Shown here: positions 26,797 through 46,229 of the stretch, piece after piece
How positions within the stretch are numbered: the stretch's first letter is position 1
Layout: each line of letters begins with the position of its first letter
NCBI GenBank assembly: GCA_000146465.1
Contig: CP001950.1
Strand: one strand, 5' to 3'
DNA length: 64,000 nt
Made by a program: the position numbers and the translations under genes
The notes under the pieces: generated by a model
Database searches by the model: none
What the model saw: only the letters and a program-made list of their open reading frames with translations
What the model was told of the DNA's origin: nothing

Positions 26797-27108
26797 TCAG
26801 TAGCCAATATACTTGATACCCATTCTTTTTAGGGAGTGAAGAATATCTGAACATGTGATAGTCTTTCTCTTAGCATGTGTGGAGTAAATACATGCGATGG
26901 AAAGAGTATCTCTGATATATTCTCTTGCTGCATTATTTATTTCTTTAAAGCAACCTCCGCCGACTCTCCTCACACCAGCACGCCTGGCAATTCTCCTGAT
27001 TGCTGGCTTGGAGATGCTGTCTGTCAGCCCGGACTGTTTTCTGTGTCTCTTTGCAATTCCCTTTGCTGCCTTACTCTTTCCTTTTGCACTGATACTCTGT
27101 GTATTCAT
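26797..27108 (-). CDS. Histone H4 (divergent)
   Basis: GAKRHRK-like AKRHRK, KPAIRRIARRAGVRRV, and TEHAKRKT-like STHAKRKTIT. 103 aa. ATG verified at 27106-27108. Divergently paired with H3. Confidence 0.85.
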   Translation of the reverse strand: MNTQSISAKGKSKAAKGIAKRHRKQSGLTDSISKPAIRRIARRAGVRRVGGGCFKEINNAAREYIRDTLSIACIYSTHAKRKTITCSDILHSLKRMGIKYIGY

Positions 27109-27435
27109 TTAGGGGATTCTGTTTTGATGTTTTATAGTTTTATTTTTGGCGGGGACATTCCCTCCAATCTAATTATCTATTCTAAACATTCTAATTTGTA
27201 AGTTCTGGACCTTTTTTTTGGAAGGTACTTACTTTGGACAGCGAAAAAGATGCACAGTCCCTCCTAAAGAGATGAATCTGCCATATTTGTACTGAGAGGA
27301 GCTGTGATAATAATTAAATACGTCTTTTTGGACCAGCCTTGTTTCTATAGCCTGGATTTCTTGCAAGAAGGCATTTGGCGCGAAAATCTCCCGGCAAATA
27401 AAATTATAAATATACACTGGAGATGAAGGACAGAA
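27109..27435. promoter_or_regulatory. Bidirectional histone H4/H3 intergenic promoter region (327 bp)
   Basis: The H4 (minus) and H3 (plus) start codons face away from each other. The AT-rich spacer contains the imperfect palindrome GTAAGTTCTGGACC-T8-GGAAGGTACTTAC at 27199-27229. Confidence 0.5.
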
Positions 27436-27858
27436 ATGTCAAGAACAAAACAGACAGCTTCAAAAGCACTTGGAGGAAAGGCTCCCAGAAAGGGCATGTC
27501 GATGAAGTCGGTCCCGTCGTCTGGATCTTCATCTGCCGTGCCTAAGGGGACGAGGTTCAAGGCTGGAGCTCTTGCCCTGAAGGAGATAAGAAAATACCAG
27601 AAGAGTACAGATCTGCTTATAAGGAAGAGGCCGTTCCAGAGGATGGTCCGGGAGTTATGCAAGAGCGGAGAAGGCATAAGATTCCAGGCTTCTGCAATTG
27701 TTGCCTTCCAGGAGGCTGTTGAAAATTTCCTTACAAATCTTGTGGAAGATGCCTATAGATGTGTTCTACATGCCAAAAGAGTTACTCTGATGCCGAAGGA
27801 TATTTGTCTTGTGTATAAGATAAAGTATGCGAACATTTTGTATGCAGCCCTTGACTGA
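27436..27858 (+). CDS. Histone H3 (divergent; could be the sole H3 or a variant)
   Basis: MSRTKQTASKALGGKAPRK...LKEIRKYQKSTDLLIRKRPFQRMVREL...LHAKRVTLMPKDI. The core is conserved. The tail residues equivalent to R8 and K27 are altered, and the C-terminus is extended. Confidence 0.85.
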   Translation: MSRTKQTASKALGGKAPRKGMSMKSVPSSGSSSAVPKGTRFKAGALALKEIRKYQKSTDLLIRKRPFQRMVRELCKSGEGIRFQASAIVAFQEAVENFLTNLVEDAYRCVLHAKRVTLMPKDICLVYKIKYANILYAALD

Positions 27859-27938
27859 AATAAAGTATTTTTATTCTTCTTGATTATAGGAATCTTTATG
27901 AACGGGAACGGAATATTTGGAGCGCACTGCCCCCCTCC

Positions 27939-28595
27939 ATGGGGGATGTTGTTTACATAGTCCATAGACAGCTTGAAAGAATACCAACCATTCCAGAGCA
28001 TGCGAGAACAGTTGACCTCCGCCGGAACAACATATCGGTTATGGCTTTGAACAAGGCAGAGTCTGTCGAGTATCTTGATCTATCAGACAACAGAATAAAG
28101 GTGATTTCCGACCTTGAAAATGTTCCGAATCTAAAGGTGTTGGATCTAAGCTACAACCTAATCACAGAAATTTCCATTCCCCGCATGGGTCTCTCGGAGC
28201 TGTATCTGATTTCTAATGACATTTCGACGATCCATGGGCTAGATCTTCCCTGCATCAAGAAGCTAGACATGGCCGTAAACGACATCTGTCAGATTGAAAA
28301 CCTCGAGAATTGTGCAACTCTAGAAGAGCTCTACCTCGGAAGCAACAGAATAAGAACAGTAGAAGGACTGTCCGAGCTCAAAGATTTGAAGGTATTGGAT
28401 CTTCAAAACAATGAACTTGAAGTGGTAGATTGCTCGGCAGTACCTTGTAATGTTGAAGTTCTTCTTCTTGGAGAGAACAGAAACCTTCAAATGATTGAGA
28501 ATCTCGAGTCATTAAAGAATCTCCGGATTCTGGGGCTGGAGAAGACAAGAGTGCCTTCTGATCTATTTGAGGGGTGTTTTACTGTTTGGCGCTAA
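27939..28595 (+). CDS. SDS22-like leucine-rich-repeat protein (PP1 regulatory subunit)
   Basis: Tandem 22-residue LRRs of the SDS22 class (LDLSDNRIKVISDLENVPNLKVLDLSYNLITEI...). Confidence 0.6.
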   Translation: MGDVVYIVHRQLERIPTIPEHARTVDLRRNNISVMALNKAESVEYLDLSDNRIKVISDLENVPNLKVLDLSYNLITEISIPRMGLSELYLISNDISTIHGLDLPCIKKLDMAVNDICQIENLENCATLEELYLGSNRIRTVEGLSELKDLKVLDLQNNELEVVDCSAVPCNVEVLLLGENRNLQMIENLESLKNLRILGLEKTRVPSDLFEGCFTVWR

Positions 28596-28812
28596 CTCTT
28601 GCGAGCCCTCAATTGGTAGGACTTGATTCTTCAACACATAGGCCATTGGATAAGGATACTGACAAAACATTACCCATGGAGGAATGCTTTGAAAAAGAAA
28701 ACAAGAAAGGATGGATTAGCATCCAGGATTCAATGAAAAGATCTAACGACTTTTGGCTCAAGGATGACGATGCAACCTCCTATCTGAACAGGTTTGTTGT
28801 GTAGCCAAGGAA

Positions 28813-29235
28813 TTGGTAATTAAAATGGTTTTCTATGAAGCATTCTTTGAGTACTTTTCCAATCTATCCTCCGATAAAGAAATTTTCCATCCAGAACTAT
28901 CCCATATGATTGGAGGCCGATCAATCCTGAAGTTTCCATTTGTTGGTATTAGAAAAGGTATTTCGGGGAATGCAGTTCCCGGACTTGCATTGTCAATGGC
29001 TGTCCTTAAGCCCATTAGTGTTGTGATGCCCAAGGTCCTCACAGATAACCTCTACAAGGGTGCAATGGCGCTTGCTACTCGCCCGTTTTGTGTTGGAGAC
29101 AAAATTAAAATCGACAAATATGATGGACTTGTGAGGGACATAAGCTTTTGGTATGTGACGCTGGAGAGAGGAAAAGGCTATGTGTTCATACCCATGTCCC
29201 ATGTATATAATACTGTTGTTGAGCTGTTCAAATAG
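28813..29235 (+). CDS. Truncated MscS-like mechanosensitive channel protein (pore helix plus beta domain only)
   Basis: Hydrophobic TM3-like helix (AVPGLALSMAVLKPISVVM). It is followed by the MscS beta-domain signature FCVGDKIKIDKYDGLVRDISFWYVTLERGKGYVFIPMSHVYNTVVELF (compare [36 protein letters not shown]). Confidence 0.55.
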   Translation: MVIKMVFYEAFFEYFSNLSSDKEIFHPELSHMIGGRSILKFPFVGIRKGISGNAVPGLALSMAVLKPISVVMPKVLTDNLYKGAMALATRPFCVGDKIKIDKYDGLVRDISFWYVTLERGKGYVFIPMSHVYNTVVELFK

Positions 29236-29297
29236 CTTCAATGATGCTTAAGATGCAAAGCTATCCAGATGGAAACAGGCATCATAATAAATAAGGT

Positions 29298-30824
29298 TTA
29301 TTCTCTTGTTCTTTCTCTGGGCTTGCACTTGACAATTGCATCGCACTTGATTATCATTTGTGCAGCCTCCGATGCAGCAGTAACAACACGATGCTTGATT
29401 CTAAAGCTGTCCACAACCCCAGACTCCTTCATACAACCAACACTTCCGCTACGGACATTTACTCCATAGCTTGTCTTACCAGAGTTGTGCTCGGCCCTCA
29501 GACTTGCCCTTATGCCTTCTCCATCATATCCTCCGTTGTCCGCGAGTATCTTTGGAATTTGCTGCAAAGCATTTGAAAATGCTAAAATGGCTTCACTTTC
29601 AATCCCAGGAACCTCCATGGCATAAGTGTTTAGGTCGACTGCCATTGCCATCTCACTGGACCCTCCTCCATAGACAACACGCGGATCCTGCTTTATCTTC
29701 GACAGAACACATAGTGCATCATGAACACTTCTTTCTGCCTCGTCCAGCATCTCTTTCGATGATCCACACAGGACAATGGTGCTTGCTCCACTCTTCACCC
29801 CGCTAAACTTTATTGCTCTTTCGTTTCCAATGTAAACATTCTTGACATTCTTGCAGGTCCCATAGCATGTTTCATCCATGCTGTCGAACGTACTCAGTAT
29901 CTTTCCTCCAAGCACATTGGAGAGTCTTTCAACCCCATCAAAGTCTGCATGTTCAATGGCTTGGATTCCCTTTATCTTCAGGAGCTGGAGAGGATAATCG
30001 TATATAAGCTGTCTATTAATAAACATATTTATCCCGTTCTGGGAAATCCGCTCCACCTTTTCTTGAATCTTTCCCTTCTCCACCTTCTCCATCTCCTCAA
30101 GCTCCCCCACAGAGCTGACATTGATCTTAGCCCCAAATATCTTAATTTTGTCTTGATCCATGCTGGTGTTGGCTATCAGGATCTTTGGATCGTTCACCTC
30201 CTCTATTCGGACGTCTTTCTTTAGAAGAAACCCATCGTCGAGATATGAGTCCTCGAGCTTCCCAGAACACTTGATCACCTGTACAAGATTCAAGTCGTTC
30301 CTACCCCCAAGGTTCTCAATAGCATTGACACAGATGTTGCAGAACTTCTCCAGATCATACTTCAGAACCTTCGAGCACAGTGTTGTCCTGGCAAGCTTGA
30401 CCAGATCCTCTTTCGATGGGTTGAAGCTAATTCTCTTCAGCACTTCAGAACACCTAGCCTGTGCCATTCTATATCCCTTAAGGATCTTCGTTGGATGCAT
30501 CTCCAGCTTGCTGGCCTCCTTGACAAGTAGACTTGCCAAAATTGCAACAGAAGTCGTCCCATCTCCTTCCTCCCAGTCCTGTCCAGTGCTGGAGTTGATC
30601 AATATCCTTGCAGACGGGCTGTCGATCATCAGGTTCTTGAGAATAAATGCCCCGTCGTTGGTAACATGGACGCTTTGTCCCTTCAGCATCTTAAGCATCC
30701 CCTTTGGTCCAAGGGTTGTCTTCAGTATGTCTCCCACAATATCCGTCCCTGCAAGAATCGTTCTCTTTGCATCATCGCCTTTTTCCTCGGTGGTTCCCAG
30801 ATTTGCATGGCTGAAGATGTTCAT
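29298..30824 (-). CDS. T-complex protein 1 (CCT/TRiC) subunit, beta-like. The track ORF runs to 30950; the probable start is ATG 30824.
   Basis: Group II chaperonin signatures TTLGPKGMLKML, VTNDGAFILK, and GDGTTSVAILASLL. Confidence 0.8.
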   Translation of the reverse strand: MNIFSHANLGTTEEKGDDAKRTILAGTDIVGDILKTTLGPKGMLKMLKGQSVHVTNDGAFILKNLMIDSPSARILINSSTGQDWEEGDGTTSVAILASLLVKEASKLEMHPTKILKGYRMAQARCSEVLKRISFNPSKEDLVKLARTTLCSKVLKYDLEKFCNICVNAIENLGGRNDLNLVQVIKCSGKLEDSYLDDGFLLKKDVRIEEVNDPKILIANTSMDQDKIKIFGAKINVSSVGELEEMEKVEKGKIQEKVERISQNGINMFINRQLIYDYPLQLLKIKGIQAIEHADFDGVERLSNVLGGKILSTFDSMDETCYGTCKNVKNVYIGNERAIKFSGVKSGASTIVLCGSSKEMLDEAERSVHDALCVLSKIKQDPRVVYGGGSSEMAMAVDLNTYAMEVPGIESEAILAFSNALQQIPKILADNGGYDGEGIRASLRAEHNSGKTSYGVNVRSGSVGCMKESGVVDSFRIKHRVVTAASEAAQMIIKCDAIVKCKPRERTRE

Positions 30825-30857
30825 CTGGGGTGAAAATTTTGTTCTTCTTGTAAACCC

Positions 30858-32669
30858 ATGAACGAAGAACTTCCTGTGGCTCCACTTGTTATGAAGCCCA
30901 CAAGAATATACAACTATACTCAGCTGATAGCGTGTCTGAAGGCGAAGCAACAGAAACTGTCAAGATACAAGGCTTCAATACCGCCTAGTCCCTTCAAAGG
31001 TATCCTTGGGCCCAAGCAATGCCAATTTGATGTTGAGGACATAGTTAATGGGTTTCTGCATGAAAAGCTTAGGGCCAGGCAAAGGGAACATGAGAAGTCT
31101 ATGGACAAGATGTTTTCCCAATGTGTCAGGAGACATATTAAGGAGCTGAAGAGGGAAAACGATCTTTTTGTGGTTGGGAACAGCAAGATTGGAGGGAGGA
31201 TCAAGGCTTTGGAAGATGTGTTTGACAAGGATTTTGAAGACAAAGAGGGGGCCAATATCGCTGAAATGGAAGGGAAGGGCAAGTTCTTTGACGATGCTTT
31301 CCTTCTTGACATGTATATGTTTCTTAAGAGACTGAAACCTTCGGACTCCTTTGATCAAGAGATTAAGTTTCTTGGAGATGAATACTTGAGATATGTGGAG
31401 AGGTTTCTAAAGGAGAATGCAGACAAGATTAAAGAGCCACTTTGGGGGGAAGAAGACAAGATTTCTGTTTTTACCAAGCTTCGATATAGCAAGGAGGAAT
31501 ATGGCCTCGAAGTGTATGAGGGGAGATATATGTTTGCAGAGCTCTACACTCTTTTTAGATGTGGACTCTTGGATTCTGCAAAGGGACTTCTTGAGCGATT
31601 CCATGTTTTTTTTGAGCACATTTCACACAGATTCAAAACAAGCTTTGGTAGTTGGATTACCACAAGAACAAAACCGGCAGTTCCTGTCAAGATAGGGGGT
31701 TCTGACGACCTTTTCAAGGCGTTTCTTCTCGGATTGATGGATGAAAAAAGCAGAAGGATGGATGAAAGGATTATTGGCAGCATTGAGGATTTTGTGTGGA
31801 TGAATCTGATCTCGATTAACGAAGGGAGATCTGCCTCTGAGATTTTGAAGATGTTTAGGAACTACCAGAATCCAAAGGGCCTTTTCCTTGCATATGTGAT
31901 GCTTAAGGACTATGATAAAGCAATGAGCTTGATGTTCAAGGGAGACTTCTCTATAATTCCATCTTATTTCATAATGAAAGCCCTCTGTCCTCGATGCAAG
32001 AATAAGAAAGTGTTTGTGGACTTTGTGTTCTTGGCAGCCTCCCGATTTTCATCGACTACAAGAAAGGTCGAAATTATAAGCTCCTTGAAGTCTGTAATAG
32101 AAGGATACTATGAGATAGTTCCCGAAATGATAGTCAAGATGGGGCTATACGATGTACTTGGGATTGATTCTGGAGCCTGTTTATACCTCGATAAGAAAGT
32201 TAACCAGAAAGTTATCGAGATACTGAAAGGAAAGAATGAGAAGAAGAAATTAATCAAGCTCTACTATTTGATTGATGATGAAACACTTGTTGTGGATCTC
32301 ATTAACGAAGCGGTTACCGAGGCAATTCTCTCAGATACGGACATTGACGAATATCTTGAGATTATCGAGTACTATGAAAGGGTGGAATGTACAAGACAGA
32401 CCCGAATGATGTCTGCATTGAAGAGCTTCTACTTGTTCAAAAGAAATCCCTCTCCCTCTACACTTGGAGAAACCCCATTGCTTGACTCAGACTTTGATCT
32501 GACGAACTTCCGATATGTAGTTGAAAAGATTTTTAAGCCAGCATGCGACATTGTGGAGAAGATGGGAGACAACGAGATGGCAAGGACCTTGTTTAAGCTT
32601 TGTGGAGTTCTTGGACTTGGAGACGAGATGTCAAGCTATGCAAACAGACATCTTGTACTACTTATATGA
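30858..32669 (+). CDS. Hypothetical alpha-solenoid protein; possibly nuclear-pore or trafficking related
   Basis: 603-codon ORF that starts 34 bp after the corrected CCT start. No family assignment. Confidence 0.4.
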   Translation: MNEELPVAPLVMKPTRIYNYTQLIACLKAKQQKLSRYKASIPPSPFKGILGPKQCQFDVEDIVNGFLHEKLRARQREHEKSMDKMFSQCVRRHIKELKRENDLFVVGNSKIGGRIKALEDVFDKDFEDKEGANIAEMEGKGKFFDDAFLLDMYMFLKRLKPSDSFDQEIKFLGDEYLRYVERFLKENADKIKEPLWGEEDKISVFTKLRYSKEEYGLEVYEGRYMFAELYTLFRCGLLDSAKGLLERFHVFFEHISHRFKTSFGSWITTRTKPAVPVKIGGSDDLFKAFLLGLMDEKSRRMDERIIGSIEDFVWMNLISINEGRSASEILKMFRNYQNPKGLFLAYVMLKDYDKAMSLMFKGDFSIIPSYFIMKALCPRCKNKKVFVDFVFLAASRFSSTTRKVEIISSLKSVIEGYYEIVPEMIVKMGLYDVLGIDSGACLYLDKKVNQKVIEILKGKNEKKKLIKLYYLIDDETLVVDLINEAVTEAILSDTDIDEYLEIIEYYERVECTRQTRMMSALKSFYLFKRNPSPSTLGETPLLDSDFDLTNFRYVVEKIFKPACDIVEKMGDNEMARTLFKLCGVLGLGDEMSSYANRHLVLLI

Positions 32670-32698
32670 AGGAAGTTTAATGGCCAGGTAATTATTCG

Positions 32699-33733
32699 AT
32701 GTTTCCAGTACCCCATATCCTTATGAAGTTCAACTCTGCCGACTTTCCGATTATGAAGAGGATGTTGGTGGCTCGGGAGGAAGGGATATACTATGAGATG
32801 GAGAAGAACAGCCTGGCCGATACATGGGATAGGTTGCTGGAGTATTACAGCGAAAAGATCCTAGAGGAGCACAAAGAAGAGATTGAAGAAGAGGAGCTTT
32901 ACAGAATACTTTGCAAGGCAAGGGTGGAAGCGGAAACAGGGAGAAGGGTATATGAGCTAATTGATAAAGATGTGCTTGAGACACACAAAGTGAAACCACG
33001 GAGTGTAGACAGGTGTGAATTCAAGACATATATTCTGGACTCGTGCATCAGGATATTAAGAAAGGGGATTTCTGAACTTAAAGATGGGATTGAAAAGGAA
33101 TCAAGAGTCTGGTCAAAAGTGGAAGGAGCTAGCATGCCTGTAAGGCTAGTGAGAGGAAAGGTTCAAGTCTATGTAACAGAGACGGAATATCTAGTAGTGA
33201 ATGAGGAAGGAGACTATGTTTACCCAAGTGATTGGAATGCTCAAGGAGTGACATGCAAGATTAGATATATGGATGTTCATTTGGAATGTTCTGTGCTTCC
33301 AAGGAACAGCATGGATAAGATAGAAATGGTTAAGGAGTACTTTCTTGAAAGATCAATTATTCAGAAATTTATTCGAAATGACATTGAGATCGAGATAACT
33401 CCAATGGAAAATCCTTCGGAAAGGGAAGACATAATCTGCAAGTATGTAGTTTGCCATCTAAAGAGAGGAAAGAGCATCAAAGAGATATTTGAAAAAGTCA
33501 ATCTCTATCTTTCAAGAAAGCTTGTTGATATCATTGTCTCTGGAAGTAAGAAATGCACTGTCTTAAGGTACAGTGGCCATGTTCTTGAGGACGGATTACC
33601 CGAGGTATTTTTTGTACTTACGGATAACAAGGTCGTCAAAGCCATGAGACAACAGCCAGGGAAGTTTGAGATATTTGTAAATGAAGTTCCGATTAGATCC
33701 TTTCGAAATTATATCTCAAGAGAGGAGCCTTGA
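32699..33733 (+). CDS. Hypothetical protein
   Basis: 344-codon ORF. No motif. Confidence 0.4.
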   Translation: MFPVPHILMKFNSADFPIMKRMLVAREEGIYYEMEKNSLADTWDRLLEYYSEKILEEHKEEIEEEELYRILCKARVEAETGRRVYELIDKDVLETHKVKPRSVDRCEFKTYILDSCIRILRKGISELKDGIEKESRVWSKVEGASMPVRLVRGKVQVYVTETEYLVVNEEGDYVYPSDWNAQGVTCKIRYMDVHLECSVLPRNSMDKIEMVKEYFLERSIIQKFIRNDIEIEITPMENPSEREDIICKYVVCHLKRGKSIKEIFEKVNLYLSRKLVDIIVSGSKKCTVLRYSGHVLEDGLPEVFFVLTDNKVVKAMRQQPGKFEIFVNEVPIRSFRNYISREEP

Positions 33734-33900
33734 AGCCTTTACTTCCTAAATCTATGGACCATGCAGGGCTTTGAATAAAGACTTTGGTGTTCAATCTTTT
33801 CTACTTTCTTTGCAAACATCCTGGCCTAATAATAAACCATTTCGGTTGGAACTCGCTTCTTAAGTTGGTGGTTATCTAACTTGAAGTTTACAGCCCAGAG

Positions 33901-34248
33901 ATGATAAGATGTGTCTATACAATGCAAAAGCATAAGAAGCTGAAAACATGGATGGACGGCTTTATAGAACAGAAAGGGAAAAGAATACATCTTTACAACA
34001 CCGACATGGTGAAGATAGACAGTTTGGTTGCTTCTTGTCTAGATAACGAGATGGAGACCCCAAAATACCTTTTGTACATCGAGTCTTTTGAGGATCCTGA
34101 GGAAAATGAGATAAAGCATCAGGAAAATCCTCCTTCTACCTCAAGAACATTGAAAGACAGACCAGAAAAAGACATAGAAGGTAATGTGAAATGTTCTTCA
34201 CCACAAGGAAGGTCTGAAGAGGAGATAATAAATTTGTTTCAAGGGTAA
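33901..34248 (+). CDS. Small hypothetical protein (115 aa)
   Basis: ORF in a spacer. Acidic C-terminus. No motif. Confidence 0.3.
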   Translation: MIRCVYTMQKHKKLKTWMDGFIEQKGKRIHLYNTDMVKIDSLVASCLDNEMETPKYLLYIESFEDPEENEIKHQENPPSTSRTLKDRPEKDIEGNVKCSSPQGRSEEEIINLFQG

Positions 34249-34261
34249 CATGGCTTTATTA

Positions 34262-35011
34262 TTACCTAAGAGTCTTTTCAATACTGCTTTCAAATGAAGA
34301 CACAACCTTTCCATCTATTCCATTCAGTTTTAGATTGTTTCTCTTTTCAAGAACGTGTTCCCTCTGTGCATTGATGTTGGATATGACGTTATCCATCACT
34401 TCCTTGAAGACTCCTATCCTTAGCTTCTTCAATTCGCTTACCACAACAGCAGCAAGCTCTGGAAACCCAATACTCTTTGAAAACACAGACATGTGCTGCA
34501 GAAGAAGAGATCCTGCCTCCTCTATAACAAACATCTGATGCTCTTCGCTTTTTGTCCTACTGGGGTCCGGATTAACCATGTCGTAGCTTATTTTTCTTCC
34601 CTCAACTGAAAGATTCTTTACGGATATGGCATTCTTCAATATTCTGATTATATAGAAGGATAAAGGGACATAAAACTTCGACCCAGCTACAGACTTAATA
34701 GCTCGAAGGCAGAATATCGAATACCGATAATCTTTATATGTTTCTATTATTCCTACCAGAAGCTTTATGTAATCTCTGAAATCAGAGTGCTTTTTTAGAC
34801 ACTTACTTAAAACCTCTATCATAAATGTGATCTTTGAAAGATCTGGGTTTTTGGTTCTGGCATATTTCTCTAAGTAAAATATTTCCGCATCGACATCCTT
34901 CGGATTCAATACATAATTTTGAATGTCCTCGGGAAGTGTTAATGCCTGGGATGTGTATATCTTTGAAAGATAGCTTTCCTCCAATTCCACACCATTGTCC
35001 GTTTGTGTCAT
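34262..35011 (-). CDS. Noc2-family nucleolar protein-like (probable)
   Basis: SIGFPELAAVVVSELKKL resembles the conserved Noc2 motif S-[IV]-AFPEL...LK. Confidence 0.35.
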   Translation of the reverse strand: MTQTDNGVELEESYLSKIYTSQALTLPEDIQNYVLNPKDVDAEIFYLEKYARTKNPDLSKITFMIEVLSKCLKKHSDFRDYIKLLVGIIETYKDYRYSIFCLRAIKSVAGSKFYVPLSFYIIRILKNAISVKNLSVEGRKISYDMVNPDPSRTKSEEHQMFVIEEAGSLLLQHMSVFSKSIGFPELAAVVVSELKKLRIGVFKEVMDNVISNINAQREHVLEKRNNLKLNGIDGKVVSSFESSIEKTLR

Positions 35012-35529
35012 TTTGGGGATTAGAAAATACCAAATATACTCTTAAAATTCCAGAAATGCTTACGTGTTTTGTAAAATCTCAAGGAAGAGCTGATCTTCTC
35101 AAATGTCCACATCTGTCCCCAGAAGGTCCTTTGAAGTAACTTTAGAACTCTTATATTGTTATTTGTCTTTAAGCTGTACTTAATCATCCAACACCCTGAA
35201 TTTGGAACTTCGGAAATATTCCCCCAACCGGTGCCAAATAGAGCAAGAGGTCTTTCTACAAGGAGAGGTGGCAGTCCAGTGGAGGATCTCCTCGAAAACT
35301 ACTTCTGGTTGAGTAGATTCGAGAGTAGCCACTGTTGGTTTGATCCCATCAGACAAAGGGACAGGGTAGATCCTATTTCGTGTGGGCCCTTTGGATGGAA
35401 GGGCCTGGAGAGCAGCGGAGGGCATGTGTTCTCCGGCAATAGAGAGCCCTGGTGAATTCATCGAGTTCCTGAAGCCCCTGATGATCGAAAGTCCTGCAAT
35501 AAAAAAGTTTATTAGATGCATTTGAGACT

Positions 35530-36315
35530 ATGCAGGAAAAGGTAAGTAACTTTGATGACCACATGTGCGATCTGGAAAAGAAGATTAAAGACATCGAAAC
35601 AGCTTTCCAACCCATCCTTCTTTCCAAGGAATCCCACAAAAGATCGTTGCCTGAAGATAGTTTTCTTAAGAACATATATCTTGTGTTGATAATTGTGTTA
35701 TGCATACAGGGTGTTCTCTGGTACACAGACAATGAAAAGTCTTCTGCTGGAACTGTGTGGAACATGGTAGTGTACTCTGTGGCAGTTGTGGGGACGATTC
35801 TGTACATGGCCTGGGTGTGGGGATTTGGCGGAAGGAGATGGACTAGTGTTGCGAGCATGGTACCTATGATGGTTGGATTTCTGAATTTGGGGAAGAGGGT
35901 GAGCTGTGAGTACGGGATGGAGATGGCAGGGCTTGGGTTTATGATGGTTTGTATGGAGAGTCTTGCAAGACACGGGATGTCATCATGGGAGATTTTGGCA
36001 GGATTGATTGGAAATGGAATTGTAGTGATGGGATGGGTCAGTTGGGCTACAATGAGGGATAGATATGGAGAGAGGATGGGCCAGTGGATGTGTGGGGGAC
36101 TTATTGTGTTTGGAATTCTCATGGCTGTGATGATGTATATGAAGGAAGGGAGAAATGTGGAAAGGAGCACTGGAAGTTATATGGTGTTTATTATGACAGT
36201 GGTTGTTGGAACAGCTGTGTCTTATGCATGTGGAGAGGATTACAGACAACTTGCAACTAAGAGGTTGTTCCAAAGACCTCGGATTGTGGAAAGTAAATGC
36301 CAGAATCCAATTTAA
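35530..36315 (+). CDS. Candidate multi-pass membrane protein with a W/G/M-rich composition. Its coding status is uncertain.
   Basis: 261-codon ORF with a hydrophilic coiled-coil-like N-terminus, then 5-6 hydrophobic segments rich in Gly-zipper-like GxxxG/W. A 265-codon antisense ORF also exists. The plus strand is extremely C-poor. Confidence 0.35.
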   Translation: MQEKVSNFDDHMCDLEKKIKDIETAFQPILLSKESHKRSLPEDSFLKNIYLVLIIVLCIQGVLWYTDNEKSSAGTVWNMVVYSVAVVGTILYMAWVWGFGGRRWTSVASMVPMMVGFLNLGKRVSCEYGMEMAGLGFMMVCMESLARHGMSSWEILAGLIGNGIVVMGWVSWATMRDRYGERMGQWMCGGLIVFGILMAVMMYMKEGRNVERSTGSYMVFIMTVVVGTAVSYACGEDYRQLATKRLFQRPRIVESKCQNPI

Positions 36316-36360
36316 TACCCAATTTAGATATGTATTTGTTTCTAGATATAGAACTAGGCA

Positions 36361-37281
36361 TCAAACATCAAAATAAACTTCAAAGTATAAATCTTTGTAC
36401 AAAATCTTTAAGTCATCCTGAGAGATATAATGGATGTTCGTGTGATCAATAAGGCCTAGACCTCCCTTTCGACATATCTCAGACGTAAGCTTCTTTGTAG
36501 CCCTTGAACTCGTCTTGGCTAGTTCTGTGAACATCTCCTTGCTAACAAGAATGTTCAATAGAAACGGCCGTTCTTCAACCACCCTCAGCAAAAAAAATAC
36601 CATCTGCTTATAGTTCTTGTCTATGTATTCCTTGACAAGAGAAATAACCTCTTCGTTGTTAAAGTTGAGTATCCAGTCCAATGGCAAGGTGTTGAACACC
36701 TTCATCTTTTCTTCGGGAAACAATGGATTCATGAGAACCATGCCGAAAAATTCCCTGAACACCTCTGCTTTGCAGCTGAACAGTATGTAGAAGTCCAGAA
36801 ACTCTTTGAATCGTGAGATTCTCTTACCCATTTCCCTGATTACAGATGAAGAGTCTAGTTGGCAGAAGTCTGAATAGAAGAAGTCCTTCAGGAATTTGAG
36901 TCTGTTAAACTCAAAAGGAAGTAGGGTGAAGCCTATCCCACAGTTCGACTTCGAAAGCGCCCATTTTATATCGATCCCTGCATTAGCCTTCTGTCTCTTA
37001 AACACCCTCGATTGGTTTTCTCTTATTCGGCTTTCGATCCTAAGAACATCAACCTCCTTCTTTAGCTTTTCCATCCTTTTCAAGCCGTCTAACACCGTTC
37101 GACTTTTTTGCTCCTTCATAGCAAAGTTCTGCGTTTCCAGTGCAATCATGTTCTGCCTCAGTATCATTATTTCCCCTGTAAGTCTCATGTTTTCTTGCCG
37201 AAGTCTTCCCAGTTCCTTCCCCAGCCTTTCGTCATCTTCATCATCACCACTAAGCACTTCTGATCCTCCAAACCCCCTCAT
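36361..37281 (-). CDS. Hypothetical protein with an N-terminal coiled coil
   Basis: 306-codon ORF. Leucine-zipper-like N-terminal heptads (LGKELGRLRQENMRLTGEIMILRQNMIALETQN). Confidence 0.4.
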   Translation of the reverse strand: MRGFGGSEVLSGDDEDDERLGKELGRLRQENMRLTGEIMILRQNMIALETQNFAMKEQKSRTVLDGLKRMEKLKKEVDVLRIESRIRENQSRVFKRQKANAGIDIKWALSKSNCGIGFTLLPFEFNRLKFLKDFFYSDFCQLDSSSVIREMGKRISRFKEFLDFYILFSCKAEVFREFFGMVLMNPLFPEEKMKVFNTLPLDWILNFNNEEVISLVKEYIDKNYKQMVFFLLRVVEERPFLLNILVSKEMFTELAKTSSRATKKLTSEICRKGGLGLIDHTNIHYISQDDLKILYKDLYFEVYFDV

Positions 37282-37303
37282 TTCTATCTTCTGTTTGAAA
37301 AGA

Positions 37304-38305
37304 TTATCTGCACTCCCCGCCTATGCTTAAGCTTGCCCTTGGAGAGGCTTTACTTATAGGTAGAACAAAAACAAGGTTATCAAGCTCTATCCTATATGAA
37401 AACTTTACGGAAAACAGCTTACAATCAAAAGTAAAACAATCATGTTCAACCCTGAGAGGAACTGCTTTATAGAGACACATGTCCGAGTTGAATTCTTTCA
37501 GGAGCCTCTCCTCGCCATTTGAAACCTCTCCGCTGATAAATTCAGTTACCTCCAGTATTATTCTTGTTTTCTTGGAATTTCTCTTATACCATATCATCAT
37601 CGTATCCTCTTTAACAAGAAGCTTTCCATATTCAACTGTAGCAACCTCTTCCTCATCGTCCTGAACAGTGACTTTGTATCTGTCCTCCTCAACCTCAGAA
37701 CCCTCCATGGATACATAGAAGTATATGTCTCCCTTACTTTCCAGTTTGTACCTCTCCACAACCTCTCTCATGAATCTAGGGAAGTCTTCAAGAAAATGCA
37801 TCTTTCGTCCTACCATCTCCTCAGTTGTTCCATAGTCTTGTCCAGCCTTGTTTCTTAGAAAGTCAACAATCTCCCCGAATGCAGTATCATCCGTGTTTCC
37901 AACCCTAATCATGTCCGAATGGACTATTATGTTTTCCATCTTCTTCAAAGGCTTGAATCCAAACGGATGGACACTAAACATCTTTGTTCTTACTTCTCTC
38001 GTTACTCCATAATATACCTCGACAATTATCGTGTAAACAACCTCCAGGCTTCTCAGTTTCATCGAAGGAAGAGCATCTCTCGGTATGATACATCTGTAAA
38101 CAGTTTCCGAGTCTTCTTTCATCGAAAGTTCAACGGGCTCAGACTCCAGAAATCTAATCTCCTTCCTGTCCATCCTCACAATTCCTGCAATCCTTGCTGC
38201 CAGGAAATCAGGTCTTTTGGATGTCTCCTTGCACTTCCTCCACTTTATGCATGATTTGAACACTCCTCCTGTATAGGCGTCACAAGGCCATATTTCAAAA
38301 TCCAT
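37304..38305 (-). CDS. Hypothetical protein; possibly an arrestin/Vps26-like beta-sandwich
   Basis: 333-codon ORF. Composition suggests alternating beta strands. No firm motif. Confidence 0.35.
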   Translation of the reverse strand: MDFEIWPCDAYTGGVFKSCIKWRKCKETSKRPDFLAARIAGIVRMDRKEIRFLESEPVELSMKEDSETVYRCIIPRDALPSMKLRSLEVVYTIIVEVYYGVTREVRTKMFSVHPFGFKPLKKMENIIVHSDMIRVGNTDDTAFGEIVDFLRNKAGQDYGTTEEMVGRKMHFLEDFPRFMREVVERYKLESKGDIYFYVSMEGSEVEEDRYKVTVQDDEEEVATVEYGKLLVKEDTMMIWYKRNSKKTRIILEVTEFISGEVSNGEERLLKEFNSDMCLYKAVPLRVEHDCFTFDCKLFSVKFSYRIELDNLVFVLPISKASPRASLSIGGECR

Positions 38306-38405
38306 GCTCAGAGAACAACAGGGATTCTAAAGTCAGTTTTTACTTCTTCCTGGATAAGATAGGTAAAGAATCAGATCTAAGTCTTTAATTAAGTGCGTCT
38401 TTGGA

Positions 38406-40349
38406 TCATCTTCTTCTGTCCAGTTTACTCCTTTCAAAAGGATCGTCGTCGGCTGCATTGAAGATTCCACCGCCTCCAAAGAGGCCCCCTAGCCCCTTGT
38501 CATTTCTTTCCTCTGAATCCACATATCCTATGCTTGGCTTAGCCGGCTGCTGAGAAGACCCTCCCTCAAACAGACCTCCAAATAGACTTTTTCCATTTCC
38601 AAATATGTTCCCCATAGACCCTGTTAGATCAATCTGCTGCTGCGGCCTAGCTTGTTCTTGTCCTGTGCTTCCGGGTACTGGAAAGCTCTGTAAGCCAGGA
38701 ATTCCACTACTACCCGAAAGAAAGATATTTCCTCCTTCTCCAAAAGAAAAGTTAGCCCCCGAGTCTTGTACGGCTTCTCCATATCCCCCCAACTTTCTCT
38801 TAAGGAGCGAAGATCCCGGTGTTGGTGAATGCAATTCTACCGATTCTTGTCCCATGCCAGACTGGGCCGGGAAAGATCCCCCTCCAAATACAAAAGGCTT
38901 GGTCTCAGGTGCCTTACCATCTGAAGCAAACGGACTGGAGATGTTCTCGTGATTTACAGTAGAAGGTGAATCTTGAGCCGGAGGAAGTGGAGCTCCCGAG
39001 TTGAAGAGAAACATAGATGTATCTCCTTGCACATTTGGTGTCCTTCCATCCCAGAATCCAAACTTCTTCGGCTCCTCCTCCACTGCAGGGCCTTCTTTCT
39101 TTTCATTTTCTAAGGATTCGTTGATTTCCCCTCCAAACACAAATGGCTCTTGCATCTGAACAGCATCCTCAACTTTTTTTGCATCTTCACTCATCTCAAC
39201 AGCCTCCCTATCATCAGATCCATTTTCCTTGGTCTCGGAAATGGGCTCTAAAATAAAATAAGGCTTGGATGGAAGAGATTCAGATTCATTACTGGTTTTT
39301 ATACCAACCTCTTTTCTGTCTTCCTGTCCACTACCATTTAGGACTTGTTCTGGCTCTGCTTCTTTATCATTCTTCTCACCATCATCTTTAATGCCTCCAA
39401 TCTCCGTCACCTCATTTCTACTCTCATCAAAACTAGCCTTTCGGCTCTTAATCTTCTCTATATCAAACAGTTGCTCCTTCCTTGCCTCGCTAAGAACTCT
39501 CGTAAGCTTCTTTCTCTCCTCGTCTTCTAGATCATCCATATCAAACTTGTCATCAGTCACATATCTTGCCACTGCCCTTTCAACTCCAAAGTCCTTCTCA
39601 AGATAGAAATATGACTTAGGAACTCTCGACTCCCATCTGTCTTTTGCCATCTGCCTTCTCTTCTCAGCTCTTTCCCTCTCCTCCTTCCTTCTCTCGTTTT
39701 CCTTTCTTTCATATTCTTTCCTTATTTCATACTCTACACATCTTTTACAGTTATACTCCCCTCCAAAATTACATCGGACTTTCCTTTCTACAACTTCGGA
39801 GTTCAATTTCTTAATATTTCTTTCGCAGAAATATTCTTCTTCCTCATCGGTAGACACCTCCCCTAGTTGAAGGAAAAGATTGTCCTCTGCATCATAGCAG
39901 ATTGCCTTTTCAATCGTCTCCATAGGCGTCTTCCCCTCTACTCTGTATTTCTTTGGAAGAACTCCCCAGCTAACATCATTCTCTTTCTTCAGGGCATACT
40001 TCTTTTGATATCCCCTTTTCCGATGCTTCTTAGGCTTCCCTTCGCCCCCCTTCGTATCCCCAGCCCCCAAGTCTCCTTTCCACTTCGCTCCTGCCTTTCT
40101 TTCCGATCTTTCTATCTCCACTCTCTTCAGCTCCTCAAATCCTTCGTCTAGTTTCTTTCTACATCCTGGCTCCGATATTGCCTTGCACAACTCTTTTATT
40201 CGATCAAGCTCAGAAACCTCAATAGGCTTTTCGCTTTCAAATCTAGAGCACAACTCCTTGTATGAGTTCAGATCCACCTTCTTCCCAGGCTGGAGTGCAT
40301 CTTTAACGCTGTTCCATGCCTCCTTGATTCTCTCGTAAAACCCTGCCAT
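38406..40349 (-). CDS. FG-repeat protein (putative FG-nucleoporin-like) with a central charged/zinc-finger-like region
   Basis: The C-terminal third contains multiple FG/FGG repeats (FVFGGEINESL, FVFGGGSFPAQ, FSFGEGGNIF, NIFGNGKSLFGGLFEGG, LGGLFGGGGIFN). Confidence 0.45.
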   Translation of the reverse strand: MAGFYERIKEAWNSVKDALQPGKKVDLNSYKELCSRFESEKPIEVSELDRIKELCKAISEPGCRKKLDEGFEELKRVEIERSERKAGAKWKGDLGAGDTKGGEGKPKKHRKRGYQKKYALKKENDVSWGVLPKKYRVEGKTPMETIEKAICYDAEDNLFLQLGEVSTDEEEEYFCERNIKKLNSEVVERKVRCNFGGEYNCKRCVEYEIRKEYERKENERRKEERERAEKRRQMAKDRWESRVPKSYFYLEKDFGVERAVARYVTDDKFDMDDLEDEERKKLTRVLSEARKEQLFDIEKIKSRKASFDESRNEVTEIGGIKDDGEKNDKEAEPEQVLNGSGQEDRKEVGIKTSNESESLPSKPYFILEPISETKENGSDDREAVEMSEDAKKVEDAVQMQEPFVFGGEINESLENEKKEGPAVEEEPKKFGFWDGRTPNVQGDTSMFLFNSGAPLPPAQDSPSTVNHENISSPFASDGKAPETKPFVFGGGSFPAQSGMGQESVELHSPTPGSSLLKRKLGGYGEAVQDSGANFSFGEGGNIFLSGSSGIPGLQSFPVPGSTGQEQARPQQQIDLTGSMGNIFGNGKSLFGGLFEGGSSQQPAKPSIGYVDSEERNDKGLGGLFGGGGIFNAADDDPFERSKLDRRR

Positions 40350-40407
40350 CCTCTCTGGGTCAACAATAATTTTTTCTCAAAAAAGTACTCTTGAAGTCAA
40401 CTTTATT

Positions 40408-40671
40408 TCAATCTTTACATTCCTTTGCCTCTTCCTTTATGTATCTCTTCAATCGACAAAGACTATTAAGGATCTCGAGGTCGTTTCCTCCAAATCTTTC
40501 ATTGTCTTCTCTACATCTAAGGACATCTGTCACACAACTCCTTCTTCTGCATCCAGGACATCTGTCATCAGACTTCAAATGCCTTTTGATGCACAGATAG
40601 CAGAAACTCTGCCCACATCGGGTCTCATGTTTAACAGAAATCTTCCAATGGCATATCCCACACAATTCCAT
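40408..40671 (-). CDS. Small RING-finger (C3HC4) protein
   Basis: CGICHWKISVKHETRCGQSFCYLCIKRHLKSDDRCPGCRR. Confidence 0.55.
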   Translation of the reverse strand: MELCGICHWKISVKHETRCGQSFCYLCIKRHLKSDDRCPGCRRRSCVTDVLRCREDNERFGGNDLEILNSLCRLKRYIKEEAKECKD

Positions 40672-40707
40672 AAAGGGCTGTTCTAGATATATTTAAATCT
40701 CATCCCA

Positions 40708-41070
40708 TCACCTCCTTTCCAATTCCTTCTCCATCTTTACATACTTCAGAATCCTCCTCATAGCTCTCTTGAGAATCCCAGATATCCATAAAATCGACAT
40801 AGAACACTTAAGACCAGAAATCTCTCCTATAGTTGCAATCGTAAACAGGACGTATTTGCATGCAGGTGCATCACATCGGATCACTGCTATTTGACTATGC
40901 GGTAAGTATTCAACAACCACCAGATTCCCCACCATTGATGCTCCATAGCTTCCATAATCAATCCCAACCTTCGACTTAACAATTGATCCCAACATCTCCC
41001 CCAGGGCCCTGCTTTGATCTCCCTCGTGCCGAAGTCGGATAACTATATACCTTGCTTTCACACGAATCAT
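40708..41070 (-). CDS. POP5: RNase P/MRP protein subunit Pop5/Rpp14 family
   Basis: N-terminus MIRVKARYIVIRL (compare MVRFKNRYLLCEL). Size 120 aa. Confidence 0.55.
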   Translation of the reverse strand: MIRVKARYIVIRLRHEGDQSRALGEMLGSIVKSKVGIDYGSYGASMVGNLVVVEYLPHSQIAVIRCDAPACKYVLFTIATIGEISGLKCSMSILWISGILKRAMRRILKYVKMEKELERR

Positions 41071-41093
41071 CTAGGGCTAGAAAATCCATTCTA

Positions 41094-42380
41094 TCAAACA
41101 TTTATCGTCTTCATCTCCTCTTTACAAGCAACCAGAAATGTCCCTTTCAATCCCAGCCCCCGCAGGACGTCATCCACATCCGTTGGTGGCTTTATGTCCA
41201 TGGGAAAAACTCCTCGCCAAATGCTAAACCGTCTGAGAATCCATTTGTCTTCGGAAATTAAGATAATTGGAACACCTGGCCTACCTAGATAGAGTCGCTC
41301 AACATCCTCCATAGAATCTGTACAAACTACAATTCCTTTTACGTAAGGAAACATTTTGTGAAATCCTAAGTCCTTCTTGGTTTCTTGATAATACGTCTCT
41401 GCCTTAATACAAATGTTCCTCATAAACTTGACAGTCTCAATAGGAAACATCCCAACAGCCGACTCTCCGCTCAGCATCACACAGTCGCATCCCTCCAGAA
41501 CTGCATTTCCAACATCAGAAATCTCCGCTCTGCTTGGTGTGTCCCGGGAAGTCATACTTTCCATCATCTGTGTTGCACAGATTGCAGGCTTCTTCCCTCT
41601 TTTGGTCTCCAAGAGTATCTTCTTCTGCGCACTAAATGTGTCTACCAGCCCAACCTCTGCCCCAAGATCCCCCCTTGCAATCATCACCCCGTCCGAGCAC
41701 AAGACTATTTCCTCCAGATTCTTCATTCCTAGGCACGACTCTATCTTCGAAACCACAGGAATCCTATTCCCCACAACCTTTCTTATCTCCTCAACATCCT
41801 TCTTGGAATTCACAAAAGACGCAAAAATCATGTCTATTCCATTCTCCAGACCAAAAACAATGTCACTCCTGTCTTCATCACTCAAAAACTTAATCCCTAC
41901 ATCTATGTTAGGAAAGTTCATGGACTTGTTGCTCCTGATTATCCCACTGCTCAGCACCTCGCATCCAAATCCATCTTCTTCTACATCGACTACTTTTAGA
42001 TCTATTCTTCCATCATCGACCGATATCCTATCCCCCATTCCCAAGGACCTAAAGTCAATCCAAGGTATCCATATGCTCTTTCCAGAGGAGACCGATGAAA
42101 ATCGGAGAATGTCTCCTCCATTAACCTCGATATTCTTATCTCCTGGTGTCCTAATCCTTATCTCAGGACCCCTTGTATCTAATGCTATTGAAACATACCT
42201 CCCCAAGCTACAGATGGCATCCTTTATGTTCCTAATAACCTCCAGATGCTCTTCTCTTGATCCATGGCTGAAGTTGAGTCTCGCAACAGACATACCCGCA
42301 TCAATCAGGTCTTTGATCTTCTCCTTTGAGGACGAAGAAGGCCCAATGGTACATACTATTTTTGTCAATGAAGCCTTCAT
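41094..42380 (-). CDS. PYK: Pyruvate kinase. The track ORF runs to 42551; the ATG at 42378-42380 gives MKASLTKIVCTIGP.
   Basis: TKIVCTIGPSSSSKEKIKDLIDAGMSVARLNFSHGS. The catalytic region is MVARGDLG-like (IMIARGDLGAEV). Confidence 0.9.
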   Translation of the reverse strand: MKASLTKIVCTIGPSSSSKEKIKDLIDAGMSVARLNFSHGSREEHLEVIRNIKDAICSLGRYVSIALDTRGPEIRIRTPGDKNIEVNGGDILRFSSVSSGKSIWIPWIDFRSLGMGDRISVDDGRIDLKVVDVEEDGFGCEVLSSGIIRSNKSMNFPNIDVGIKFLSDEDRSDIVFGLENGIDMIFASFVNSKKDVEEIRKVVGNRIPVVSKIESCLGMKNLEEIVLCSDGVMIARGDLGAEVGLVDTFSAQKKILLETKRGKKPAICATQMMESMTSRDTPSRAEISDVGNAVLEGCDCVMLSGESAVGMFPIETVKFMRNICIKAETYYQETKKDLGFHKMFPYVKGIVVCTDSMEDVERLYLGRPGVPIILISEDKWILRRFSIWRGVFPMDIKPPTDVDDVLRGLGLKGTFLVACKEEMKTINV

Positions 42381-42502
42381 AGATGAATGGGACAAATCCT
42401 TTCCAAATTTATCAATCTTGTTTTGAGATACATGATAGGTTCTTTGGAGATAGGGGCCGATCCAGAGTATGGACATAATCCAATGCTTCTCCCTTTGAAG
42501 GA

Positions 42503-42973
42503 ATGAAGACTGTTGCTGTTGTAATGAAATCTTTGGATGAGGAAATCCCATTGTCTAAGAACTCTGTTGGGGATGGATTCCTAGGATCAGCAAAGCATGT
42601 TGTAATGATATTTATAGAGAAGAACAAGATGTTTCTCTTCAATGATCCTCACTTGATGCTTGAGTCGGAAAAGACCCTGAGGATGGAACAGAAGCTCCAT
42701 AGAAAGGCTGTTGTTGAACATCTGGAAAAGGCTGCTCAGGCTGTGAAGAAGTTAAACTTCAAGGCCGAAGTATCGAAGTTGGTGATTAATGGAGATGAGA
42801 AATACAAAATAGAAAAATGCCTGGCATGTCTGGAGGTCCAAGCAGTGATGTTCATCGGTAGACATAAGAAAAAAAGGTTTTATGAATGCTTTGTCCAATC
42901 GTTGGAGGACTATGTGTTTGAGGCTATGAAGATTCCTATTATCAAGATACCAGCTTCTAAGCATCGGTCTTGA
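42503..42973 (+). CDS. Hypothetical protein (156 aa)
   Basis: ORF divergent from pyruvate kinase. No motif. Confidence 0.35.
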   Translation: MKTVAVVMKSLDEEIPLSKNSVGDGFLGSAKHVVMIFIEKNKMFLFNDPHLMLESEKTLRMEQKLHRKAVVEHLEKAAQAVKKLNFKAEVSKLVINGDEKYKIEKCLACLEVQAVMFIGRHKKKRFYECFVQSLEDYVFEAMKIPIIKIPASKHRS

Positions 42974-43006
42974 AGCATTTGAACCATAGATTTACTTAAA
43001 AATAAA

Positions 43007-43675
43007 TTACAACCTAATAGATCCAAGGATTCTTTTGCACATCAATGCTGTGATGAGTTTACACCCACAAATGCATCCAACTGCGATTTCATTCCGTACT
43101 AGACATATCTCTGAGATCACAATTGAGTTGGATGCTATGCATAGGAACTCTATTACAAGAAGATATTCTTCCCATTGGTACTTCCACATTATCATGATGA
43201 ATATAAATAGATAGTAGAAGCTTGAAAGAAGGAGTGAACTGGATAACTTTAGAAATCGAACATGCCTATGGAACACAGTGAATGCCAGCACCAGAAGGAG
43301 AACAGTTTCCACAAGACTCTCTAGGGCATCTCTGCAGATGGTGGCTATGGTTGCAATCAAATTCACTTTCCCGGAACTCTCTCCAAAGAAGAGAATCCTA
43401 AGGGCCCCATGGTGGTGAAGTATAGGTCCTGTAAGCACCTTGGCGATTAGCATAAACAAGGCGCTTCTGGTGAGATCCTTTTTGTTATTGAAGAGATAGT
43501 GTCTGAAGATCCTCCTCTTCAGCAAGAGAAGATCTACAAGCTTCATCAAACTATTCAGCTCAAAGTATCTGTCCATCTTCTTGGAACATAGTTGGCACCT
43601 CGAGATCTGCTTGGCAGAGGAGTTCTTGAGAAACAGATGCTTTGCTCTATTTCCACATTCTATGCATACATACAT
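43007..43675 (-). CDS. ARV1: Arv1-like protein (Arv1 homology zinc ribbon plus TM helices)
   Basis: N-terminus YVCIECGNRAKHLF...ISRCQLCSKKMDRY matches the AHD zinc ribbon (ICIECG...C..C), followed by hydrophobic segments. Confidence 0.6.
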   Translation of the reverse strand: MYVCIECGNRAKHLFLKNSSAKQISRCQLCSKKMDRYFELNSLMKLVDLLLLKRRIFRHYLFNNKKDLTRSALFMLIAKVLTGPILHHHGALRILFFGESSGKVNLIATIATICRDALESLVETVLLLVLAFTVFHRHVRFLKLSSSLLLSSFYYLFIFIMIMWKYQWEEYLLVIEFLCIASNSIVISEICLVRNEIAVGCICGCKLITALMCKRILGSIRL

Positions 43676-43698
43676 TAGAGATTCCTTAGGGCTCTAGA

Positions 43699-44778: not shown

Positions 44779-44834
44779 GAGGTCCTTGAAATTATAGAAC
44801 AAGCGATTTTGGAGAATAAATTTTTTGCCCATTC

Positions 44835-46227: not shown

Positions 46228-46229
46228 GG

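Follow-up and report, generated by a model that had tools for sequence, protein, structure and literature searches.

The InterC proteins, which are restricted to the genus Encephalitozoon and whose function is unknown, combine an N-terminus predicted to be cytosolic with five to eight C-terminal transmembrane helices (Dia et al. 2016, PMC4704409; PMC10158259). Their genes occupy subtelomeric positions as well as the cores of chromosomes IX, X and XI (PMC4704409; PMC10158259); in E. cuniculi, chromosome IX carries the majority of those interC genes that are found in chromosome cores (PMC4704409). The present work concerns an InterC locus in a 64,000-nucleotide (nt) stretch of DNA, referred to below as the window, which belongs to chromosome IX (233,397 bp; contig CP001950.1 of GenBank assembly GCA_000146465.1) of the 2010 assembly of E. 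intestinalis ATCC 50506. At this locus (window positions 35012-36315), 518 bp without a long open reading frame (ORF) separate a Noc2-family gene on the minus strand (34262-35011) from an ATG at 35530, which opens a plus-strand ORF of 261 codons corresponding exactly to the annotated gene Eint_090540. We conclude that the locus is very probably the scar of a repeat-induced misassembly in the short-read reference for chromosome IX.

The 2010 genome was assembled from 31-nt paired reads using Velvet with k = 19, and the resulting 137 scaffolds were linked by nested polymerase chain reaction (PCR), cloning and Sanger sequencing (PMC4355639). The locus can now be compared with the telomere-to-telomere (T2T) assembly of the same strain, ATCC 50506, which was built from long reads (GCA_024399295.1; chromosome record CP075166.1), as well as with contigs of two further isolates, ATCC 50603 and ATCC 50651, and with a third isolate that was read through its consecutive KAL protein accessions.

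Identity of the plus-strand ORF

The plus ORF is no new gene: it corresponds to the latter half of an InterC membrane-protein gene that is already known. The Pfam profile PF07937 (DUF1686) matches it with E = 3e-21 and 76.6 bits, against a gathering cut-off of 25, and residues 74-237 of the ORF align to profile positions 3-182 of 182. The family assignment rests on this match, a word-based homology search with the 261-residue ORF having returned its own cluster only; remoter InterC proteins have too few exact words in common with it for such a search. A BLASTP comparison shows that Eint_090540 is equivalent to residues 290-550 of the 550-residue InterC protein UTX45990.1 (P0003), with 258 identities in 261 positions, so that the annotated start of Eint_090540 is an internal methionine, residue 290 of the longer protein. 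Homology at the DNA level to the 550-residue InterC gene continues for 16 nt on the 5' side of ATG 35530 and ends exactly at the junction between positions 35513 and 35514 that is described below. The window ORF thus represents the C-terminal 47% of the gene, of which the last 266 codons are kept at the locus, and no CCC motif of the kind discussed below precedes its ATG.

Compared with the described family, the window copy has a full-length DUF1686 domain that scores above threshold, together with five or six separate hydrophobic segments towards the C-terminus; these were located with Kyte-Doolittle averages of at least 1.2 in 19-residue windows, a crude measure, and the transmembrane segments are therefore predicted ones. 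The position of the locus in the core of E. intestinalis chromosome IX is likewise consistent with the distribution of InterC genes. The copy differs from the family in lacking the N-terminal domain of about 290 residues that Dia et al. predict to be cytosolic: this soluble domain (about 250-300 residues in a full length of about 500-550) is absent from the 261-residue window ORF and present in the true gene, and the family members that were inspected are 499-550 residues long and carry it. The domain is lacking because the assembly is broken, the gene itself being intact. A sequence-only reading of the window had already taken the plus ORF for a coding sequence and a candidate membrane protein, which is borne out by the complete DUF1686 match and the hydrophobic segments, with the qualification that the ORF is only half a gene; the clear protein homologue that the same reading had named as the observation which would count against an anomalous locus is supplied by the DUF1686 match. 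The alternative of a repeat-derived sequence, also raised on that reading, comes close to the truth: the ORF is a member of the InterC multigene family, and the two breakpoints described below adjoin repeats.

A second InterC gene, Eint_091090 (UTX46047.1, 499 residues), is located near the downstream copy of the duplication described below, and its DNA is 98.4% identical to window positions 35514-36263.

Comparison with other assemblies

The discontinuity at the 5' end of the truncated gene could not be recognized from the window sequence alone. In blastn comparisons, window segments 24262-35513 and 35514-47281 are 99.93-100% identical to CP075166.1 and to the contigs of the two isolates, and all of these carry, between the equivalents of positions 35513 and 35514, exactly 5,206 bp that the window does not have (CP075166.1 83362-88567, also found as L001 5646-10851 and L002 11769-16974 among the compared records). 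The absent DNA carries the genes for a DUF5097 protein, for ATG9 and for a CAF1A-like protein, as well as the first 284 codons of the InterC gene. The order in the T2T assembly is Noc2 (minus strand), a gap of 469 bp, DUF5097 (507 residues), ATG9 (467), the CAF1A-like gene (354, minus strand), InterC (550) and Eint_090550; the contigs of ATCC 50603 and ATCC 50651 have the same gene order, and consecutive protein accessions give it for all three isolates. The intergenic sequence 35012-35480 is collinear, at 99.9% identity or more, with L001, L005 and L006, and is present in the T2T assembly (at about CP075166.1 82860-83328) and in other isolates.

The junction is blunt and has no microhomology. 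It falls within the DUF5097 gene, whose start codon lies at window position 35481 (the gene call in L001 starts at 5613) and of which 11 codons are left, encoding MIESPAIKKFI. The sequence CCCC at 35475-35478 precedes this ATG, and a CCC-like motif is found directly 5' of most Encephalitozoon start codons (PMC2803860). The 518-bp spacer is accordingly a composite: natural intergenic DNA accounts for the first 469 bp, DUF5097 for the next 33 bp and InterC for the last 16 bp. Five bases around the junction are private to the window (35312 A, 35445 A, 35878 T, 36079 G and 36256 A). They are the only differences between the window and the T2T assembly across 24262-47281, a distance of 23 kb, and all of them lie within 945 bp; the chance of such clustering around the junction is roughly 1e-5. 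Three of the five substitutions alter InterC residues (L>F, S>G and S>T).

The features of the locus and of its flanks are as follows.

34262-35011, minus strand: Noc2-family gene Eint_090530, the left flank, in unique sequence; 249 residues, Pfam PF03715 with E = 6.8e-16, exact match to protein ADM12182.1
35012-35480, no strand: natural divergent intergenic region between Noc2 and DUF5097, 469 bp
35165-35513, plus strand: retained start of copy A of the direct duplication R, its first 349 nt
35312-36256, no strand: the five private substitutions relative to the T2T assembly, on both sides of the junction
35373-36170, minus strand: antisense shadow ORF of 265 codons, no Pfam match
35475-35513, plus strand: CCCC start signal and first 11 codons of DUF5097, ended by the junction
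35513-35514, no strand: probable misjoin, with 5,206 bp absent relative to the other assemblies that could be read
35514-36315, plus strand: the 3' 802 nt of the InterC (DUF1686) gene
35530-36315, plus strand: plus ORF Eint_090540, 261 residues, exact match to ADM12183.1 / XP_003073543.1
35749-36240, plus strand: complete DUF1686 (PF07937) domain from Pfam, multi-pass transmembrane, the core of the C-depleted, G/T-rich stretch
36361-37281, minus strand: Eint_090550, the right flank, in unique sequence; 306 residues, exact match to protein ADM12184.1

The duplication and the placement of the missing genes

DUF5097 and ATG9 are part of a direct duplication of 3,416 bp, designated R, which comprises 316 nt 5' of DUF5097, DUF5097 itself, ATG9 and 84 nt of the 3' end of the CAF1A-like gene. 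Copy A is located at the Noc2 locus and copy B 60 kb downstream, beyond the window. The two copies are 99.56% identical (blastn of L007 9685-13100 against L001 5297-8712), and the portion of copy A that is retained in the window (35165-35513) is 96.8% identical to the corresponding portion of copy B (L007 9685-10033). Copy A is taken to be ancestral because copy B keeps the 84 nt of the CAF1A-like 3' end. The 15 mismatches between the copies are crowded at the edges, with 10 in the first 322 nt, four in the last 50 nt and one in the central 3 kb or so, a pattern that looks like ongoing gene conversion of the centre or, alternatively, like selection on the two genes.

In the T2T assembly, the locus of copy B holds only the lectin-like gene, the second DUF5097, the second ATG9 and TSR3. 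In the 2010 annotation, the genes that are missing from the window are found about 60 genes downstream, flanked by the lectin-like gene Eint_091120 and TSR3, at the position that copy B occupies in the T2T assembly. They bear the following locus tags.

Eint_091130: DUF5097
Eint_091140: ATG9
Eint_091150: CAF1A-like
Eint_091160: flagged 'partial', 276 residues, 100% identical to residues 1-276 of the T2T InterC protein

Some 23 nt of the InterC gene, representing codons 277-284, occur in neither of the two 2010 fragments. The 'partial' flag might be read as placing Eint_091160 at a chromosome end; this was dropped, since the locus tags place it in the middle of the chromosome, between the CAF1A-like gene and TSR3. 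Two gene models also differ in length. ATG9 has 400 residues in the 2010 annotation (Eint_091140) and 467 in the T2T assembly and the three isolates, and the neighbouring RNA helicase has 395 residues in 2010 as against 399, which suggests additional discrepancies, in gene models or in sequence, around the misassembled block.

The block formed by DUF5097, ATG9 and CAF1A is kept in four Encephalitozoon species, whereas its left-hand neighbours differ: Noc2 lies to the left of the block in E. hellem, genes of the copy B locus in E. romaleae (a 261-residue gene, a mannosyltransferase, the lectin-like gene and TSR3), and in E. cuniculi the block is surrounded by an inverted pair of InterC genes. 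These differing neighbours imply that the region 5' of DUF5097 is a recurrent rearrangement point.

Origin of the junction

Two repeats hamper assembly of the region: the 3.4-kb duplication R, and the InterC paralogue, whose C-terminal half is 98% identical in its DNA. The 2010 assembly very probably attached the repeat, together with the CAF1A-like gene and the 5' half of the InterC gene, to the locus of the downstream copy, and the contigs left on either side of the original locus were then put end to end at 35513|35514, which closed it, either through direct abutment or through a cloned PCR product; we infer this last step from the form of the join.

The left breakpoint lies 27 nt past the last site that distinguishes copies A and B (35486), where a stretch of 1,330 bp begins in which the copies are identical. 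The right breakpoint lies 5 nt past one site that distinguishes the InterC paralogues and 23 nt before the next. All three of these distances (27, 5 and 23 nt) are shorter than the 31-nt read length, and it is at such positions that short-read contigs specific to one paralogue have to stop. Later assemblies from longer reads break at the locus too: SPAdes contigs built in 2025 for other isolates from 151-nt reads end inside the same InterC gene, at the equivalents of window positions 35759 and 36114, because this gene and its paralogue Eint_091090 share an identical stretch of at least 210 nt. The InterC proteins of these isolates have been deposited as 'partial' proteins of 365 residues because the contigs end inside the transmembrane domain, and, judging by discontinuous accession numbers, the SPAdes assemblies appear to be broken on both sides of copy B as well.

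The locus therefore shares with the misjoins known from short-read de Bruijn assembly the location of its breakpoints at the borders of near-identical paralogues and within one read length, the attachment of the missing block to the other copy of a repeat, the splitting of one gene into two fragments, and the failure of later assemblers at the same place. It differs from them in that the join contains neither shared sequence nor Ns and is surrounded by private base differences, features that favour manual or PCR-based finishing over the action of the assembler alone.

Weighing of the alternatives

Several observations weigh against a misassembly. The junction is blunt, with no shared bases, and the collapse of repeats by an assembler usually joins contigs through shared sequence; the explanation therefore needs a manual or PCR-based finishing step. 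Neither copy B nor the 499-residue InterC paralogue carries the five private alleles, so that a consensus mixed from paralogues was dropped as their source, as far as the paralogues that could be read are concerned; they could have arisen as PCR or cloning errors, from low-quality contig ends, or from a third paralogue. Errors introduced in finishing, whether in a cloned nested-PCR product or at poor contig ends, would be the most economical source. Lastly, the 2010 placement of the missing genes is known through locus tags and consecutive accessions.

The same blunt junction is what end-joining would give, and it is thus also compatible with a real structural variant, in which the parasites sequenced in 2010 had the 5.2-kb block only at the paralogous locus, 60 kb away, and not here, leaving a truncated InterC gene that might be expressed from its internal methionine. 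The clustering of the private substitutions at the junction fits such an event, as does the tendency of InterC genes, and of the sequences flanking the DUF5097-ATG9-CAF1A block, to be rearranged between species (our comparison above; PMC4704409). We nevertheless consider a structural variant very improbable. The locus is intact in the long-read assembly of the same ATCC strain and in the three other isolates; three coordinated breaks would be needed; both breakpoints fall less than one read length from paralogue-distinguishing sites, which is expected of contig ends and not of biological breaks; and the InterC codons 277-284 occur in neither of the fragments that the 2010 assembly contains. 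A deletion by a single unequal crossover between the direct copies can be set aside, because it would remove the intervening 60 kb, which is kept in 2010 (Eint_090550 to Eint_091120). The RefSeq annotation implies yet another reading, namely that Eint_090540 is a genuine stand-alone gene for a 261-residue membrane protein, preceded by a long intergenic region. Its reading frame is unbroken and takes in the whole of the Pfam DUF1686 domain, but this reading is extremely unlikely given that the protein equals residues 290-550 of a 550-residue protein of the same strain, that homology extends 5' of the ATG and stops at the junction, that the other members inspected possess the N-terminal domain, and that the ATG has no CCC-like start signal.

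Non-coding RNA in the spacer

A non-coding RNA (ncRNA) in the spacer had also been considered on the sequence-only reading. In its present form this would be a lineage-specific ncRNA in the 469-bp intergenic region, such as a very divergent RNase P or MRP RNA, signal recognition particle (SRP) RNA, or small nuclear or nucleolar RNA. The region is long for the genome, in which the median intergenic gap is 56 bp (on a crude map of the window built from ORFs of 100 residues or more), and its 3' half has a G+C content of 52.6%. The region 5' of DUF5097 is long in all four species (340-807 bp), with the following values in the other three.

E. hellem: region 5' of DUF5097, 410 bp
E. romaleae: region 5' of DUF5097, 807 bp
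E. cuniculi: region 5' of DUF5097, 340 bp

The minus strand moreover folds somewhat better than shuffled sequence, although the effect is marginal (z = -2.38, with 2 of 200 shuffles folding as well). The plus strand does not share this tendency (z = -0.76). No Rfam family matches the spacer, even with E values of up to 10 admitted; over 34600-36700 the best scores (E = 1.3-7.3) are far below gathering, and none of them belongs to RNase P, MRP, SRP or spliceosomal RNA. Rfam searches of the orthologous loci produced nothing at gathering score, and ARAGORN found no transfer RNA (tRNA) at the locus. When the upstream region is compared by BLAST with E. hellem, E. romaleae and E. cuniculi, there is no similarity beyond the approximately 45 nt that adjoin the ATG; we relied on BLAST here, since global-alignment identities measured against shuffled controls were noisy (baseline 0.33, standard deviation 0.14). 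Copies A and B differ by 3% upstream (10 differences among four compared sequences) but by only about 0.03% in the neighbouring 3 kb (one difference), and this concentration of mismatches marks the upstream part as the least constrained part of the duplication. Both of the sequence boxes that had been cited in favour of an RNA are otherwise explained, as set out below. An ncRNA at this locus is not supported and must be regarded as very improbable.

The motifs themselves are present, GGTTTGATCCC at 35337-35347 and CTGATGATCGAAAGTCCTGC at 35478-35497; it is their interpretation as RNA boxes that does not hold. What had been described as a 'CTGATGA...GAAAGTCCTGC box' consists of the CCC-like start signal and codons 1-6 of DUF5097, and its conservation in four species is coding conservation. 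The T-loop-like box at 35337-35347 was dropped as a tRNA-like element, ARAGORN having found nothing and the box differing at 35339 in copy B, and it shows no conservation in E. hellem, E. romaleae or E. cuniculi. A further candidate was GAAAGTCC at 35487-35494, which presumably resembles the CR-I element of RNase P and MRP RNAs (GAAAGUCC-like) and served as a lead only. It was rejected because it corresponds to DUF5097 codons 3-5 (Glu-Ser-Pro) and no Rfam model matches; it differs from CR-I in being coding sequence that is conserved as such in four species.

The conservation across species that reaches about 45 nt 5' of the annotated DUF5097 ATG (window 35424-35480) may reflect either a true start that lies further upstream in some species or a conserved promoter element. 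An in-frame ATG at 35424 would lengthen DUF5097 by 19 codons, and a version of 526 residues (P0008) occurs in a Logan assembly. The 5' untranslated regions reported for Encephalitozoon are shorter than 7 nt (PMC2803860).

The window's only Rfam match at gathering score is a stand-alone 5S rRNA gene at 20285-20403 on the minus strand (97.6 bits).

Composition and the antisense ORF

The long overlapping ORFs on the two strands that first drew attention to the locus are present, with 261 codons on the plus strand (35530-36315) and 265 on the minus strand (35373-36170). The skewed composition is real as well, since a scan of the 64 kb in 786-nt windows finds C on the plus strand to be scarcest at this locus, with the minimum at about 35652; the description of the strand as having almost no C was overstated, the actual values being 12.6% over the ORF (35530-36315) and 10.5% over 35700-36260, compared with a mean of 21.5% for the whole window and 13-18% for the coding strands of neighbouring genes. 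The extremity is also less unusual than it appears: 786-nt windows that are equally extreme on one strand or the other make up 2.7% of the total, and an equally strong, mirror-image depletion of G occurs near 39300.

Val, Gly, Met, Leu and Trp, whose codons are rich in G and T, abound in the DUF1686 domain. In the T2T InterC gene, in its paralogue and in two E. cuniculi members of the family, an excess of G over C is seen in the C-terminal half and not in the N-terminal half; the window copy shares the skew with these relatives. The C-poor, G/T-rich composition would thus stem from the Gly/Val/Met/Trp-rich domain in combination with the excess of G over C that coding strands of this genome show in general. 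The 265-codon minus ORF stays open because low plus-strand C makes CTA and TCA rare, leaving TTA to supply most of the stops: the 798 nt of this ORF contain plus-strand CTA five times, TCA five times and TTA seven times. It matches nothing in Pfam, its openness is explained by composition, and a protein that does match a family lies opposite it; it was consequently dropped as a gene and is a shadow ORF, a by-product of composition.

Other properties that had been attributed to the spacer stand in part. Although it contains no long ORF, it does hold small ones of 99 residues (plus strand) and 113 residues (minus strand), neither of which matches Pfam; they were dropped as genes for lack of a family match. 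Its G+C content as a whole is barely above that of the window (43.4% against 41.6%) and is clearly higher only in the 3' half, 35230-35480. The description of it as practically the longest spacer in the window may not hold, because the crude ORF map contains a gap of 638 bp at 61347-61984.

That gap, the longest on the map, has plus-strand ORFs of 89 and 94 residues and a minus-strand ORF of 83 residues, and Rfam and tRNA searches of it found no match. The strongest strand-specific depletion in the window, 8.2% plus-strand G over 500 nt, exceeds that of the flagged region and is located at approximately 39296-39800. It falls in a minus-strand gene for 647 residues (38406-40349), whose product is a low-complexity protein rich in Gly, Glu and Lys with no Pfam match on record.

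Implications

The InterC/DUF1686 family has already been described, and the correct structure of the locus has been publicly available in the T2T assembly of 2023, so that the biological significance of the present finding is small and its practical value is one of curation. Eint_090540 (XP_003073543.1) and Eint_091160 (XP_003073605.1) are the two halves of a single 550-residue InterC gene, and Eint_091150 and Eint_091160 belong at the Noc2 locus. DUF5097 and ATG9 (Eint_091130 and Eint_091140) are listed once in the 2010 annotation, while the T2T assembly has a copy of each at both loci, and the five bases around the join are probably wrong. Comparisons of synteny or gene content that are based on the 2010 assembly would wrongly infer the relocation of genes and the truncation of one of them. 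More generally, an anomaly in composition or spacing can flag an assembly error, and such a case is soon resolved by comparing the locus with another assembly of the strain concerned. If the arrangement of 2010 were true after all, InterC genes and their flanking duplications would act as breakpoints for the relocation of gene blocks in cultured Encephalitozoon, and such a relocation would have left behind a promoter-less half gene.

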